From positions 32,001-96,000 of IMG/VR virus record IMGVR_UViG_3300020048_000018: a stretch of DNA of 64,000 nt. One strand, given 5' to 3'. Shown piece by piece: positions 34,362 through 47,452 of this stretch. The translations under genes were made by a program, and so were the position numbers. Below the pieces are notes generated by a model. It did no database searches. It was not told the DNA's origin and was given only the letters and a program-made list of their open reading frames with translations. The stretch's first letter is position 1, and each line of letters begins with the position of its first letter. This stretch comes from a virus.

Positions 34362-35552
34362 ATGGAGTTCAAAATGGAGATAGACAAAAAAACAATTCTT
34401 TTAGTTGAAGATGAAGAATTGATAGCAATAGATAGAAAGCTTAATTTAGAAAAATATAATTTTAAGGTTGTTCATGCCAGCAACGGAGAACAAGCCTTAG
34501 AATTATTTAACACTGAAGAGAACATTTCTTTAGTTCTCATGGACATTGACCTTGGATGCTGTCCCGATGGTATAATGATAGCAAAAAATATCTTAAGTAT
34601 TAAGTATCTCCCCATAATATTTCTTTCAAATAAGAATGAGTCAGAATTAATATTAGAGATTGAATCTATAAACTCTTTTGGATACCTTAGTAAAACTTGT
34701 GACACCAAGGTGTTAGTTTCAGTTATGAATACTGCACTTAAACATTTTGAGTATTTTACGAAAGTTGAAGAAGGTGAGTCTAAATTAAAAGTAATGATAG
34801 CAAACATTGCGGATGTAATAGCAATTGTAACTCCTGAGGGAAGGGTACTCTATAAAAGTGAAAATATTAAAGAATCTTTCGGATATGAACCTATGGATTT
34901 TGGTGTTCACCTCACAGATACAAAAAATGCATGGGATTTGATTCATCCCAGTGATATAAGTATTATTCAAGTTCTTAGGAACAGACTTGTACAAAAAGAT
35001 AATATTTCATTAAAAGCAGATTTACGACTTTTATGTAAAAATGGTTCATATAAAAACATAAAACTTACTGCAACAAGCTTGCTAAACAATCCAAGCATAA
35101 AAGGGATATTATTAAGCTTTCATGATGTAACCGAAAAATCAAAAATTGAAAATGATATAACAGAAGCTAAATTATTATTTCATTCGGTAATTGATAGTAT
35201 ACCTCAAAACCTGTATGTTAAGGACCGTGAAGGAAGATTTATTCATGCTAATATTAATTACTGTAAACTTCAAGAGAAAACATTAAAAGAAATAATTGGT
35301 ATGACTGATTTTGATATGCACTCTAAAGAATTAGCGGAAAAATATTTAATGGATGATCAGCTTGTTATTGAGTCAGGGGTTATCCTTGAACTAGAAGAGT
35401 CTCATGAGGTTAATGGTACTCTCGAAACTGTACATGTAATAAAATCTCCCCTGCATGATCATAGAATGAGAACAGTAGGAACTATAGGTATTTTTTGGAA
35501 ATTGGATGGTATTCCTAAAAAAATTAAAAGGAAACCCAGAAAAAAACTTTAA
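34362..35552 (+). CDS. Receiver-PAS-PAS signalling protein without output domain
   Basis: ILLVEDE, LMDIDLG..DG, FLS, GYLSK; two PAS/PAC units (YKSEN..FGY..; YVKDREGRFIHAN..VIKSP); start may be ATG 34374 (SD GGAG). Confidence 0.88.
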   Translation: MEFKMEIDKKTILLVEDEELIAIDRKLNLEKYNFKVVHASNGEQALELFNTEENISLVLMDIDLGCCPDGIMIAKNILSIKYLPIIFLSNKNESELILEIESINSFGYLSKTCDTKVLVSVMNTALKHFEYFTKVEEGESKLKVMIANIADVIAIVTPEGRVLYKSENIKESFGYEPMDFGVHLTDTKNAWDLIHPSDISIIQVLRNRLVQKDNISLKADLRLLCKNGSYKNIKLTATSLLNNPSIKGILLSFHDVTEKSKIENDITEAKLLFHSVIDSIPQNLYVKDREGRFIHANINYCKLQEKTLKEIIGMTDFDMHSKELAEKYLMDDQLVIESGVILELEESHEVNGTLETVHVIKSPLHDHRMRTVGTIGIFWKLDGIPKKIKRKPRKKL

Positions 35553-40143: not shown

Positions 40144-41346
40144 ATGGCAAGATCAATGGCTGTGGTAAACACAATAGCAAATGTGGAGAGTATTCCAGAA
40201 AAAGACAGAATCGTTCTTTATGGATTTTCGGAAAATGATTGGAAAATTATCGATGGAAAGGATACCTATAAAGTAGGTGACTTGGTAGTGAGAATTGAGG
40301 TTGATTCGCTTTTACCGGTTAGGGAAGAATTTGAGTTCCTAAGAAGTAAATGCTATACATCTAAGTTTGATCGGTTCAGAATTAAAGCTTTAAAACTGGG
40401 TGGCGTAGTATCGCAGGGACTACTTCTTAACTTGAGTATACTTCCGAAAGGAAAATATAAATCAGGGGACGATGTTACTGAGTTACTGGATATCCTTAAG
40501 ATGGAGGATGCAGAAGATGCTTCTCCAAAAGCCAATGGAACATCAAAACTCCAAACGCCTTTCATTAAGTTTTTAATGGATCACAAGTTGACTAGGAAAT
40601 TAGGAAAACTTTTAATTAAGTTTAAGCTGAGAAATCATATCAGTGGCAATTTCCCTTCGAGTACTATTTCAAAAACCGATGAAACCATTCTACAGAATTA
40701 CAAGGGTCTTTTAACCAAACATGCTAAGGATGGTTCGTATATCACCCTGAAGTGTGAGGGACAGAGTAGCACCTTTCTGTACAAAATGAAAAAGAAAAAG
40801 CCTTTTGCTTTTTTTGCATGTTCAAGAAACATTGCGTATCCAAAAGATAACGATAATAATTTCTGGAAAATGGCTAAGAAGTATAAGCTGGACGAAAAAC
40901 TTAGAAAGTATTTTAAGGATACGGGAAAAGTATTAGCAATCCAGTGTGAGGTAATCGGACCGGGTGTGCAGGAAAATATCTATAAACTTAAAGAACTTGA
41001 GATAAGGATGTTTACTGCGAAAGATATCACAAACGATATTCTTTTAACTTATTCCGAACTTATTGACTTACGAGATAACTATGATATTCCGATGGTTCCT
41101 GTTTTAACTACAGGAATTCTTGAAGATATTCTTCCTGATCTCGAAACTGCTTTAAGACTTTCATTTATCAAAAAGAATGATTTAAGTCATCTTGACGAAA
41201 GATTCAGAGAATCCCTTAAAAAGGAAACTTGGATACCTGAGGATGTACTTAATGAAGGAATGGTTATCAGGGGGCTTAACAATGAATTCTCATTCAAGGT
41301 AAGAAATCCGCAATATGTCTTTGGTGGAATTACAGCTAAATACTAA
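40144..41346 (+). CDS. RNA ligase, DRB0094/Rnl5-like family
   Basis: N-terminal IANVESIPEKDRI...YKVGDLVVRIEVDSLLP; KTDET; motif I KCEGQS; QCEVIGPGVQ; EGMV; SFKV. Confidence 0.88.
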   Translation: MARSMAVVNTIANVESIPEKDRIVLYGFSENDWKIIDGKDTYKVGDLVVRIEVDSLLPVREEFEFLRSKCYTSKFDRFRIKALKLGGVVSQGLLLNLSILPKGKYKSGDDVTELLDILKMEDAEDASPKANGTSKLQTPFIKFLMDHKLTRKLGKLLIKFKLRNHISGNFPSSTISKTDETILQNYKGLLTKHAKDGSYITLKCEGQSSTFLYKMKKKKPFAFFACSRNIAYPKDNDNNFWKMAKKYKLDEKLRKYFKDTGKVLAIQCEVIGPGVQENIYKLKELEIRMFTAKDITNDILLTYSELIDLRDNYDIPMVPVLTTGILEDILPDLETALRLSFIKKNDLSHLDERFRESLKKETWIPEDVLNEGMVIRGLNNEFSFKVRNPQYVFGGITAKY

Positions 41347-41376
41347 AAAGAAAGTTCAGCGAAAGCTGAACTTTTT
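41347..41376. terminator. Bidirectional terminator between convergent units
   Basis: AAAGTTCAGC-GAAA-GCTGAACTTT flanked by A and T runs. Confidence 0.85.
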
Positions 41377-41380
41377 AGTT

Positions 41381-42415
41381 TTAAATTCTTCTTAATTTTT
41401 TTAGTTTCTTATATTGTTTCTCTTCCAACTTAATTAAGCTCTTATTATCAAACACATAGTTTGAGTTAACAATAAAACCTATTATTACAACTACCCGAAA
41501 CAGATAGGAATAAATCACATTATGAACTCCAATAAACTCGGTTACTGGAATTTTTAGACTTTCACTAAAACCATTAAAGTAGGTTAAAAGTTTAAATATC
41601 ACCATATCAAAGTTTGGAGTACCATTACTAAAATACTCGCTAGGAAGTATCTTTCCCCAGCGCAGGTCAGCATAATTTGAGTAAAAAATCTTTTGAGTAG
41701 AGTTGTATAAACTTAAGGTAAAAACAACTATAAGTACAGCATAGGTAAAATAAAAACGTTTGGTAAGTTTTGCTTTTCTGATAAACCTCATCATAGCAAT
41801 AACCATTATTATTCTATATAAATATAAAACAATATTTGGGGTAAATGACTTAAAAGACAAACAGTCTGTTTGAAGGAGGGGTTCAATAGAACCAACCAGA
41901 ATATTTTTATAGGATCTGGGTTCTATAATAGGAACACTTCTGTATTCAATTATTGAGTATAAATAAACAATTACTCCTATAACCATTAAAATAAGTATCG
42001 TCCTCAGTAATTGGGTATATTTCTTAAGTTCTACAATAGAGGGCGTCAATAAAATCGAGAGCGCAAAATAATAGCCTACAAGTACTAAGCATATAGCATT
42101 AATAATTGAAAAGAATTGATAGGAATAATATGTTACCGAAACCCATATTCTTAAAAAACTAATAATACAAATTAATAGACTTGTAACAAAAATATACAAT
42201 TCAGAAGTTGACCCGTTAGACTTTAAGTACAATCTTAAAGACTTAATAGAATAATATACAAGGATAGCTATTGTGACTACCGAAATAATTAAATCTATAA
42301 TTACCAACCAATCGAATACTCCGGTAGAAACGAGATTTCCCTGTATGTGAAATATCCCAAAGACTTCTAAAAACTTAAAGTAAAATATATTTAATAGGTT
42401 TAACATAAATAGCAT
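41381..42415 (-). CDS. Polytopic (~7 TM) membrane protein
   Basis: About seven hydrophobic segments, long loop after TM4, basic C-tail. Confidence 0.75.
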   Translation of the reverse strand: MLFMLNLLNIFYFKFLEVFGIFHIQGNLVSTGVFDWLVIIDLIISVVTIAILVYYSIKSLRLYLKSNGSTSELYIFVTSLLICIISFLRIWVSVTYYSYQFFSIINAICLVLVGYYFALSILLTPSIVELKKYTQLLRTILILMVIGVIVYLYSIIEYRSVPIIEPRSYKNILVGSIEPLLQTDCLSFKSFTPNIVLYLYRIIMVIAMMRFIRKAKLTKRFYFTYAVLIVVFTLSLYNSTQKIFYSNYADLRWGKILPSEYFSNGTPNFDMVIFKLLTYFNGFSESLKIPVTEFIGVHNVIYSYLFRVVVIIGFIVNSNYVFDNKSLIKLEEKQYKKLKKLRRI

Positions 42416-43191
42416 CCTTCCAACACGTTTACCTTTGTTATTACCTTTCTATAGATATGACCAAAGAAGTAAATCCTAAAAGAAATTATAACCAAGGAAA
42501 TTAGTAATAATACTCCCTTATAAGACGAGGTAAAGTCTACTACATTTAATAAAAATACAGTTAGACAGTAGATTAAGAATAAAAAGTATTCATGAAATAC
42601 CGCAGTATTATTTTTAGTATATGAAATAGTCCTACTTAGATAAATAAACAATGCAGTAAATGACATACAAAAAAAGCACAAGAATAAGGTTAAAAACGAA
42701 TTTAATTGAGGAAGTGATTTTATTTGTCCCATTCCAAAAATGAGATTAAAAACAGAGTTTTCTAAATAGGTGTTATATATGATATCTCCATTAACACTTA
42801 CTGGTAGAAAGACTAGATAAATCATTAAGGAAATTTCTAAAAATACAATTATATGTTTTTGAAACAGAGTAGTAGTAAAAGTTATATTTCTTATAAGATA
42901 CAAACAATGAAAAAACAAAGCAATAAGATTAAAAACATTAAAAGCAATTTGATTATATCCTACAACCCTAAAACTAAAAATATTTGGAAACAAATAATGA
43001 TTAAAACTTAATAGATAAAAAGCATTTGAAATTATCATACTTGTAAGTGAAATGAGAAGATAATAGGTATTATACTTTGGTACTCCCTTAAAATAAGCTA
43101 CCTTTATAAGTTTTAGTGCTGACCTAATCAGTAAAAGTTCTATAAAAATAAAGCAACTAAAAAATATAGCATTTGTAATATAAGTAATCAT
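42400..43191 (-). CDS. Polytopic (~7 TM) membrane protein
   Basis: Seven hydrophobic segments, long loop after TM4; overlaps next gene by 16 nt. Confidence 0.75.
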   Translation of the reverse strand: MITYITNAIFFSCFIFIELLLIRSALKLIKVAYFKGVPKYNTYYLLISLTSMIISNAFYLLSFNHYLFPNIFSFRVVGYNQIAFNVFNLIALFFHCLYLIRNITFTTTLFQKHIIVFLEISLMIYLVFLPVSVNGDIIYNTYLENSVFNLIFGMGQIKSLPQLNSFLTLFLCFFCMSFTALFIYLSRTISYTKNNTAVFHEYFLFLIYCLTVFLLNVVDFTSSYKGVLLLISLVIISFRIYFFGHIYRKVITKVNVLEGCYLC

Positions 43192-44097
43192 TTATAACCC
43201 CACAATTTGACCCAAATCAGTGGATTTAATATCAGGAATATTTATAGTCATTATTTGAATAAGTTTCTTATTACAATCAGTATTCCTTTCTACTATTTGA
43301 GATTTATTTTCCTCTGACTGTCTCTTAGCATCATCTATACATGCAAGAATTTGCTTAAAGAGTTCATCTTTATTATCCTCAAAAGTTACTCTTGCAATTA
43401 TTAGGTCAACAGGATTTCTATAGTTGTCCATGCTTGCTTCAAAAGCTTTCACACATCTTCTTGCAATGTTGGTACCATATGCTTGAAACTCTTCTTCGTT
43501 TTTTTCAACCAAGTGGTTTCTGCTATATGCCTCATCTAGTTCTTTCATAATTATAGTTTCAAAATCTAAATCAATAAGTTTGCCAAAAAACCAAGAAGAA
43601 TCATCATACCTTATATCAAAGGAAGCATTGTCCTTATTCTTTCTCTCTAATTGTGTTTTATAGGCTTGAGTAAAAGTAAATGATATTGGGTTCAACATTC
43701 TTTTTGTGTTTGCTAACTGAGATTTTAATAATTGATTTTTTATCTCATTTGTCTCAGTGTAATAGTTAATAACCTCATCAATGGATTGGGTCATACAATT
43801 AATTATATTGTTTTTAGTAACCCCTACCATTGAAGATACAAAAGTCTTAGAGGGTTCCTCGGAGACTCCCTTAACGGCTTTTACCTCATCTTCTTTAGGT
43901 TTACGTTTTGTTGAAAACTTAAATAGTCCGTTCCCAAGTTCAATATTACTATCCTCAGAATTGCTAAATATTTTAGATATTAAGGATACACCAACTTTAA
44001 CTATATGCAACACTCCGAAAATACACAGTGCCATTAAAACTATAAGTATTAAGATATTTTGAGGGGTTGTAATGGATTTTATAAACTCTTCTGACAT
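43192..44097 (-). CDS. Bitopic membrane protein with large soluble helical domain
   Basis: Single N-terminal TM (ILILIVLMALCIFGVLHIV), SD AAGGA, stop abuts next ATG. Confidence 0.8.
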   Translation of the reverse strand: MSEEFIKSITTPQNILILIVLMALCIFGVLHIVKVGVSLISKIFSNSEDSNIELGNGLFKFSTKRKPKEDEVKAVKGVSEEPSKTFVSSMVGVTKNNIINCMTQSIDEVINYYTETNEIKNQLLKSQLANTKRMLNPISFTFTQAYKTQLERKNKDNASFDIRYDDSSWFFGKLIDLDFETIIMKELDEAYSRNHLVEKNEEEFQAYGTNIARRCVKAFEASMDNYRNPVDLIIARVTFEDNKDELFKQILACIDDAKRQSEENKSQIVERNTDCNKKLIQIMTINIPDIKSTDLGQIVGL

Positions 44098-44212
44098 AAT
44101 TGAAAGTTCCTTAGCAGATTTTAGGATATTTAATTAGTTGTCTATTTTTTTTAGCTTTCAATCCCCTTAAATACTGAGAAAGGAGTGCCTTAATACCTAA
44201 AAAATAATTGTG

Positions 44213-44253
44213 AAAGTTTTGAACTTTTCTTGAATTCTCTATATATTATATAG
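44213..44253 (+). promoter_or_regulatory. Repeated promoter, copy 11
   Basis: Same motif, divergent from minus-strand operon. Confidence 0.85.
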
Positions 44254-44384
44254 GTAAACAAGGAGGGAAAAGGCAGAAAAGTGAGTAATCCTTAGTACAA
44301 TTGAAAAATACTTGTTAATATAACGTTATTGGCGTTCCATTATATACTTTGGGATGAAAGTTTAATCAGCCTTAGGGAGAGTTT

Positions 44385-44705
44385 ATGAAATCAGAGTATT
44401 TGGGAATGAGAATAACCTCGGCAGTAAGAACTGCCGATGCCCTCCTGAGAAAGGAATCAAAAAACCTTAGAATATTTGCACGAATAAATGAGTCAGAAAT
44501 TATGCCCATTTTTGATATTGATGAATTGGAAGATAGCCTTGTGTCTTCTTCTATTCGCATTTTCGAGAATACCAAGGTAGAAAAATCCGTGTTCTGGCTG
44601 GACAGAATATCCGAAACTTCTGCACAGATTCGGAGCGTAAACTTTAGTAATAATATCGAACTTGGATCTAAAATAGAGTTTGATATAAAACAAGTGGAGG
44701 CTTAA
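44385..44705 (+). CDS. Hypothetical protein
   Basis: SD GGGAG. Confidence 0.65.
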   Translation: MKSEYLGMRITSAVRTADALLRKESKNLRIFARINESEIMPIFDIDELEDSLVSSSIRIFENTKVEKSVFWLDRISETSAQIRSVNFSNNIELGSKIEFDIKQVEA

Positions 44706-47374: not shown

Positions 47375-47446
47375 GTCCCGTTCGCCAAATGGTTAAGGCG
47401 GTGTTCTGCAAAAGCACTATCGTGAGTTCAATTCTCACACGGGACT
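47375..47446 (+). tRNA. trnC: tRNA-Cys(GCA), CCA not encoded
   Basis: GTCCCGT/ACGGGAC acceptor, GCC/GGC D-stem with TGGTTAA loop, GTGTT-CTGCAAA-AGCAC, GTGAG-TTCAATT-CTCAC, U73. Confidence 0.95.
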
Positions 47447-47452
47447 CTTTAG

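Follow-up and report, generated by a model that had tools for sequence, protein, structure and literature searches.

A conserved trio of membrane protein genes, two of them encoding proteins with seven predicted transmembrane helices, in a clade of uncultured large phages

In a 64,000-nucleotide stretch of phage DNA (the window; bases 32001-96000 of the 178-kb IMG/VR virus record IMGVR_UViG_3300020048_000018), three minus-strand genes encode a protein with one transmembrane (TM) helix and a large soluble domain, g1, followed by two polytopic proteins of seven predicted TM helices each, g2 and g3. The same trio was found in about seven phage lineages with otherwise changing neighbourhoods, and it is very probably a real co-functional module. 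We propose, with a probability of about 0.35 for the whole chain, that the three proteins form one inner-membrane complex linking the envelope to a cytoplasmic action, either in the timing of lysis or in the response to, or exclusion of, superinfecting phage. The source is a jumbo-type, AT-rich phage (about 34-35% GC) from an aquatic metagenome, and CheckV estimated the completeness of the record at 69%. The genes of the trio, in window coordinates, are as follows.

43192-44097, minus strand: g1, an open reading frame (ORF) of 301 amino acids (aa)
42400-43191, minus strand: g2, an ORF of 263 aa
41381-42415, minus strand: g3 as called (344 aa), with a likely start at 42406 (341 aa)

The trio is conserved as a unit. 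A full HMMER pass with a g1 profile over 1.84 billion cluster representatives returned ten proteins in total, six of them distant (E 4e-15 to 9e-4). A word-indexed protein search with g1 returned seven homologs at 57-81% identity, and the same search with g2 and g3 gave nothing beyond the query itself. Each g1 homolog with readable downstream DNA, representing about seven lineages, was followed without exception by two polytopic proteins, the first of ~250 aa and the second of ~280-350 aa; the co-occurrence of the three genes, on which the preliminary description of this locus depended, thus holds in every lineage where the DNA can be read. The lengths of g1, g2 and g3, in that order, are given below.

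L002/3/4: 300, 249 and 278 aa
L005: 319, 260 and 343 aa
L006/7: 300, 249 and 277 aa
L016: 295, 266 and 338 aa
L018: 315, 260 and 350 aa
L021: 279, 256 and 348 aa
P0018 contig: 268, 232 and 309 aa

At L008 and L019/20 the contig ends after the second gene or early in the third. Orthologs of g2 and of g3 align at 17-41% identity with motifs in common, and the stop and start codons of adjacent trio genes overlap or abut at all loci. The flanks vary by lineage and include RNA ligase, CCA-adding enzyme, DNA methyltransferase together with an SLT lytic transglycosylase, 5'-3' exonuclease and HSP20, the last directly preceding the trio in one lineage; the trio is the sole constant among loci whose GC content ranges from 27% to 56%. 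In close pairs, where the comparison is unsaturated, the ratio of nonsynonymous to synonymous substitution rates (dN/dS) was 0.08-0.16. Such values reflect purifying selection, and the trio genes are therefore real and constrained. The trio alignments are shallow, with 7-14 sequences each. Identity between the window phage and L002 was 67% for the RNA ligase, 57% for g1, 31% for g2 and 27% for g3. These two phages have the same ligase-trio arrangement (RNA ligase at window 40144-41346 and at L002:4912-6117), and at 35% and 53% GC they stand nearly 20 GC points apart though they are fairly close relatives.

The layout of the locus is compact. The TAA of g1 directly abuts the ATG of g2, and the reading frames of g2 and g3 overlap, in agreement with the tight coupling noted at first. 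The sequence GGAAGGA, a Shine-Dalgarno match, abuts the first ATG of g3 (42415) and lies 8 nucleotides (nt) upstream of the second (42406); because of this spacing g3 probably starts at 42406 and has 341 aa, the length that the stored gene call in the protein collection likewise gives. The elements around the genes are as follows.

44108-44112, minus strand: Shine-Dalgarno AAGGA, 10 nt before the g1 ATG, as read from the sequence
44131-44138, minus strand: ACTAATTA, the second-class promoter motif, its last base 33 nt and its first base 41 nt before the g1 ATG
44219-44247, plus strand: a copy of the main promoter, TTGAAC-17-TATATT, directed away from the trio and toward the gene at 44385
41349-41376, both strands: a bidirectional intrinsic terminator, which serves the trio (minus) and the convergent RNA ligase gene (plus)

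The trio is thus preceded, as originally stated, by a Shine-Dalgarno sequence and ACTAATTA and not by the main promoter, whose copy in the same spacer is directed the other way. The terminator hairpin, also correctly described as closing the trio in both directions, has a stem of 10-12 bp flanked by A and T runs, scores on both strands, and folds as RNA at -15.2 kcal/mol (z -5.4). A second terminator-like hairpin within the g3 coding region (41638-41662, minus strand) is probably a chance match. Within the trio block GC falls to 0.28 and the GC skew switches to negative. The statement that this is the only minus-strand operon stands for the window, where the trio genes are the sole minus-strand ORFs of at least 100 aa not inside a plus-strand gene and the remaining non-overlapped ones have 51-76 aa; it fails for the 178-kb genome, which has further minus-strand blocks beyond the window.

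The word ACTAATT marks a second promoter class in this phage. It occurs 12-70 nt upstream of 20 genes genome-wide, against a mean of 3.2 for permuted heptamers (n=140); the runner-up among these counted 18 and is most likely CTAATTA, a shifted form of the word. ACTAATT is a true upstream element, found 26-43 nt ahead of g1 in the window, L002-L009, L016/17, L018 and L021, over the range of 27-56% GC, and in the GC-rich relatives the copy before g1 is the sole copy of the word in those loci. In L016, four consecutive minus-strand genes are preceded by ACTAATT in addition to the trio. That ACTAATT(A) is common to phages so different in base composition suggests a phage-encoded recognition factor shared across the clade. 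Genes behind ACTAATT in the window phage encode Hsp20 and the product of the next gene, a tail-fibre/decoration-like protein, a candidate spanin, two proteins of 616-642 aa that match PHROG families of very large phage proteins, a protein of six TM helices together with a papain-type protease, and a BspA-repeat-like protein. Because of the kinds of genes in this list, the class is probably a late or morphogenetic one. Two of these loci lie beyond the window. A minus-strand pair driven by ACTAATT at genome 107774-109279 (75774-77279 in window coordinates) encodes a 215-aa protein with about 6 TM helices and a weak DUF998 match, and a 283-aa papain-family cysteine protease with a C-terminal TM helix. 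A 675-aa protein consisting mostly of BspA-type leucine-rich repeats is encoded at genome 98436-100463, directly 3' of the candidate spanin gene on the minus strand.

The main promoter is a repeat of ~45 nt, made up on the transcribed strand of AAAGTTTTGAAC, a 17-nt spacer and the near-palindromic TATATATTATATA. About 24 full copies are present in the genome (for example at window 319, 10346, 12289, 35568, 48018, 63150 and 44180-44270), and they are nearly always oriented toward plus-strand genes. Its core, TATAATAT, is also kept in the spacers upstream of g1 in the GC-rich relatives.

The g1 protein consists of a short N-terminal tail, one TM helix (about residues 15-36), a basic tether of ~50 aa and an all-helical bundle of ~210 aa, which bears out the single TM helix and large soluble part first read from the ORF. 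An AlphaFold2 (AF2) model built from 14 sequences reached a predicted local distance difference test (pLDDT) score of 79 overall and above 90 in the domain. In this model the bundle is elongated, with long helices at 86-153, 166-192, 201-223 and 232-286, and the tether is of low confidence (residues 45-89) with a conserved hydrophobic-x-hydrophobic-G motif. Conservation within the protein is best at two turns between helices, RNHLxEKN and DNYRNPVD. The flank that follows the TM helix was more positive than the one before it in 11 of the 14 homologs, equal in 3 and less positive in 0, with 4-10 Lys/Arg within the 40 residues that follow the helix; by the positive-inside rule the bundle is therefore predicted to be cytoplasmic. 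Foldseek searches of the PDB and BFVD with the model gave E-values of 0.02 or more, and the best VIA-align hit (Z 8.9, on unrelated helices) was at the noise level for bundles; such noise-level matches included BAR domains, chemoreceptor sensor bundles and designed bundles.

The g2 and g3 proteins agree with their first outline as proteins of ~7 TM helices with a long loop after TM4 and no output domain. Both have a loop of 30-34 aa after TM4, g3 has an extra loop of ~50 aa after TM6, and only short basic tails of 19-26 residues, with no domain, follow TM7. The odd-numbered loops and the tail of g2 are basic, and g2 is therefore predicted to lie N-out/C-in; the alternating basic loops of g3 predict the same orientation. 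For g2, an ESM Atlas model (pLDDT 0.56) superposed on DUF6962, HisKA_7TM, 7TM-GGDEF and G-protein-coupled receptor (GPCR) clusters with TM-scores of 0.55-0.72, the HisKA_7TM cluster at 0.61 by query. An Atlas feature search brought up HisKA_7TM only at 0.88, in a cluster with 10% of members carrying that domain. For g3, the AF2 model has 7 TM helices, a variable N-terminal extension, loops following TM4 and TM6, and a basic helix C-terminal to TM7. Foldseek against the PDB gave weak GPCR matches (E 0.03-0.1). In an exhaustive VIA-align comparison each of the 50 best chains had the GPCR fold, 49 of them receptors and one a designed soluble GPCR-like fold; they aligned over residues 34-329 (203-248 aligned, root-mean-square deviation about 4 Å) with Z 13.5-15.3, just above the range near 13-15 that a common arrangement of helical bundles can give. 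The sensor-like seven-helix (7TM) shape suggested for these proteins thus holds at the level of fold, and we read the g3 model as a receptor-like 7TM fold, not as homology. Membership of the HisKA_7TM family by sequence is not borne out, since a Pfam scan of 9 g2 and 7 g3 orthologs at E up to 0.5 found no 7TM sensor family. A microbial rhodopsin was rejected as well for both proteins, the Schiff-base Lys being absent from TM7 of g2 (226-244) and of g3 (297-322); a match to the rhodopsin fold had been among the checks first proposed.

Conservation within the trio follows the predicted topology. The mean BLOSUM score was -0.17 for the periplasmic and 0.70 for the cytoplasmic segments of g2, and -1.41 and 0.41, respectively, for those of g3. 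In g2 the two highest segment scores belong to cytoplasmic loops 1 (1.75) and 2 (1.39), which hold its best-conserved motifs, AY..G.PKYD.YY and RNITF..QK. Invariant residues are Y40, K112 and F199 in the g2 orthologs and G20 in 7 g3 orthologs; none is a polar residue inside a TM helix, which argues against an enzyme or a carrier. The pattern is one of a well-kept cytoplasmic subunit and well-kept cytoplasmic faces with drifting outward faces.

None of the three proteins or their orthologs matched Pfam, PHROGs, NCBIfam or PADLOC above any cut-off, and PDB sequence profiles gave nothing below E 0.1. Searches with tblastn of g1, g2 and g3 against 50,697 phage records found no match, nor did blastn of the region; IMG/VR and JGI metagenome contigs, scanned with profiles of g1 or with single homologs, yielded no relatives, and a profile search of the two phage genomes with the nearest RNA ligases found nothing. 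By hhalign g2 and g3 are not paralogs and have no detectable relation, and no paralogs of g1 or g2 were found elsewhere in the genome. Among the candidates tried, FlgN scored 20.6 bits with g1 against a cut-off of 30.5, on one helix only, and was set aside as compositional; apart from this sub-threshold FlgN hit, a Pfam scan of g1 at E up to 1 found nothing, PHROGs likewise, and g1 was rejected as a member of Phage_holin_T. No relation of g1 to the TelA or XpaC proteins of the same phage was found. A CPBP/Abi intramembrane protease (EExxxR / FxxxH motifs) was rejected since neither Pfam nor PADLOC matched and Y40, K112 and F199 are the only invariant residues of g2. A literature search on phage 7TM, GPCR-like or DUF6962 proteins brought nothing relevant. 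The view of the trio as an undescribed phage membrane module survived this search, in which no transporter, glycosylation, Abi or defence family was matched. By sequence, the trio lies outside every family and system tested and makes up three new protein families.

On this basis we propose that the three proteins assemble into one phage-specific inner-membrane complex. The g1 protein would be anchored N-out/C-in, with its ~210-residue bundle hanging in the cytoplasm on the ~50-residue basic tether, and g2 and g3 would be two unrelated 7TM proteins of receptor-like helix arrangement, also N-out/C-in. The tether or the bundle of g1 would be held by g2 and g3, through their conserved cytoplasmic loops and their basic tails; assembly through the cytoplasmic face in this way has slightly better than even odds. 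The fast-evolving periplasmic loops would face the envelope, and either adaptation to different hosts or diversifying pressure may act on them. The complex would couple the envelope state to a cytoplasmic action while the ACTAATT class is active, most likely for control of lysis timing or for superinfection response or exclusion, and lysis timing taken specifically is a doubtful choice. The antisense position, the ACTAATT class and the two-way terminator suit proteins that are not to be made with the main-promoter genes, and such insulation therefore favours a device that acts on the envelope or reports on it.

In a stronger form of the proposal the trio would signal across the membrane as a unit complete in itself. 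Two different 7TM receptors of GPCR fold, with variable loops on the outside, would form a pair, and a separately encoded, membrane-tethered helical bundle docked on their conserved cytoplasmic loops would be the transducer. With this unit the phage would read the envelope or the outside, for instance superinfection or the state of the host, and time late events. We consider this form improbable. The complex, if true, would be a new viral route connecting the bacterial envelope to the cytoplasm, and three protein families would be new and in need of names. An uncultured clade of large phages keeps a pair of stand-alone, receptor-shaped 7TM proteins together with a separate tethered bundle over 27-56% GC, and the ACTAATT before the trio gives a way into the transcription programme of phages that have no cultured member.

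The systems to which the trio can be compared each differ from it in basic features. In bacteria, a 7TM receptor-like domain normally comes as a fusion with a kinase, a cyclase or a similar output. Like the prokaryotic 7TM sensors (HisKA_7TM PF16927, the N-termini of 7TM-GGDEF proteins and 7TM kinases, DUF6962), g2 has seven helices, a predicted N-out/C-in orientation and TM-scores of 0.55-0.66 by query. In contrast to them, the trio has no Pfam match even at E 1 and no fused kinase, cyclase or other output, and it places two different 7TM proteins side by side with a separate tethered helical protein. The g3 model aligns with class A GPCRs (including the viral BILF1, 7jhj) on all seven helices and has a C-terminal amphipathic helix after TM7. 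Identity is only 5-14%, however, and no DRY or NPxxY motif is present across 7 orthologs, so that the resemblance is one of fold only; to our knowledge, a bacterial host would offer no G proteins.

Those phage membrane proteins to which a role has been assigned (holins, antiholins, spanins, exclusion proteins) are small. Canonical holins have 1-4 TM helices and under ~220 aa; unlike those of class I and class II, both polytopic trio proteins are predicted to cross the membrane 7 times, at lengths of 263 aa (g2) and 341-344 aa (g3). The T4 proteins Imm and Sp are small products of early genes, with 1-2 TM helices. They are inner-membrane phage proteins directed against incoming DNA or lysozyme, a role that the fast-evolving outward loops of g2 and g3 would fit, but they have no sequence similarity to the trio. 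The Cid/Lrg pairs (LrgA/CidA with LrgB/CidB) are proposed to control membrane permeabilisation and lysis. Like them, the trio is a single operon of polytopic membrane proteins. It differs in having no Pfam/NCBIfam match to them and in helix counts and sizes, and the Cid/Lrg systems are not known to have a tethered helical-bundle subunit.

The preliminary description had likened g1 to T4 holin T. As in the T/RI/RIII lysis-inhibition system of T4, g1 is bitopic, with one TM helix and a large soluble domain, it is made along with partners in the membrane, and the envelope is plausibly what it acts on as infection ends; the T4 system is not known to include 7TM partners, however. Holin T has its N-terminus in the cytoplasm and a globular C-domain in the periplasm (PMC12162936; PMC11413866), whereas g1 is predicted to be N-out/C-in, from 11 of 14 flanks, with an elongated all-helical cytoplasmic domain and no sequence match to T. 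Because the charge bias places the g1 bundle in the cytoplasm and not in the periplasm, the analogy is weakened, and no T or RI chains were among the g1 structural matches listed. Judged by sequence comparison and models, the trio is not a T-type holin.

Several points weigh against the proposed complex. The topology of the trio proteins rests on the positive-inside rule. The g3 model is modest (pLDDT 65.7 from 4 sequences), and its VIA-align scores carry the reservation given above for helical bundles. The 'late' timing of the ACTAATT class comes from gene kinds, and no search confirmed as a capsid the product of a 561-aa gene that it drives. The sequencing runs that contain the trio stretch are three DNA runs of one aquatic study, with no RNA runs listed. 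We know of no described lysis regulator that resembles 7TM proteins of 260-340 aa. The sole wall hydrolase or endolysin candidate found, an SLT lytic transglycosylase with an N-terminal signal anchor (genome 128135-128857; L022:1201-1923), is encoded 52 kb from the trio behind a copy of the main promoter. Its ortholog in L016 (L016:7480-8238, 36% identical) is convergent with the trio and overlaps its 3' end; because this adjacency is found in a single lineage, it is a hint only. A further link, between the trio and a REC-PAS-PAS protein encoded at window 34362-35552, had been put forward and finds no support here: the trio flanks of the relatives (up to 8 kb) have no recorded receiver or PAS family.

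The trio might instead be the lysis effector set itself, with g2 and/or g3 as unusually large holin-like pores and g1 as an antiholin-like cytoplasmic regulator, and strict ACTAATT-class expression would prevent a lethal membrane protein from being made before infection ends. The antisense position, separate promoter class and bidirectional terminator insulate the trio from the main promoters; the candidate spanin gene likewise stands behind ACTAATT, the basic charged tails of g2 and g3 are holin-like, the SLT ortholog of L016 is convergent with the trio, and no canonical small holin was recognised near the SLT gene. However, seven TM helices in 263-344 aa exceed the described holins in both respects, no holin family was matched, the distance and main promoter of the SLT gene in the window phage count here too, and several small ORFs with 1-2 TM helices elsewhere in the genome could be the holin. 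We regard this explanation as unlikely.

An anchor or scaffold for late morphogenesis, in which the g1 bundle would bind a head, portal or packaging component and the 7TM pair would be its membrane platform, has similarly little probability. It would account for g1 being kept about as well as a core enzyme while its 7TM partners drift, and it agrees with a promoter class common to Hsp20 and virion-like genes and with the position of the trio directly after HSP20 in one lineage; but the flanks vary in every lineage with no fixed head-gene neighbourhood, and two 7TM proteins would be an elaborate anchor.

Still less probable is a transporter, a channel or a membrane enzyme, for example one that modifies the envelope or lipids, accompanied by an accessory subunit. 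The polytopic nature of g2 and g3 and their membrane-tethered partner would fit it, and one of the 7 g3 orthologs has a sub-threshold MFS_4 match (E 0.002). No family was matched at any curated cut-off, though, the invariant residues of g2 and g3 include no polar one within a TM helix, and the fold matches are receptors, not carriers. That three independent membrane proteins merely travel together, without complex or joint function, is close to excluded: g2 and g3 are indeed not paralogs, but about seven lineages (17-68% identity, 27-56% GC) preserve the gene order, similar gene sizes and the overlap of stop and start codons while the flanks all change.

The genome that carries the trio also encodes a CCA-adding enzyme, RNA ligases, an NAD-dependent DNA ligase, a TelA-like protein and a nicotinate/nicotinamide phosphoribosyltransferase-like protein. 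No close cultured relative was found, the RNA ligase of the phage being at most about 30-35% identical to any in the 50,697 phage records. The sole tRNA in the window by ARAGORN is a tRNA-Cys(GCA) at 47375-47447 on the plus strand.

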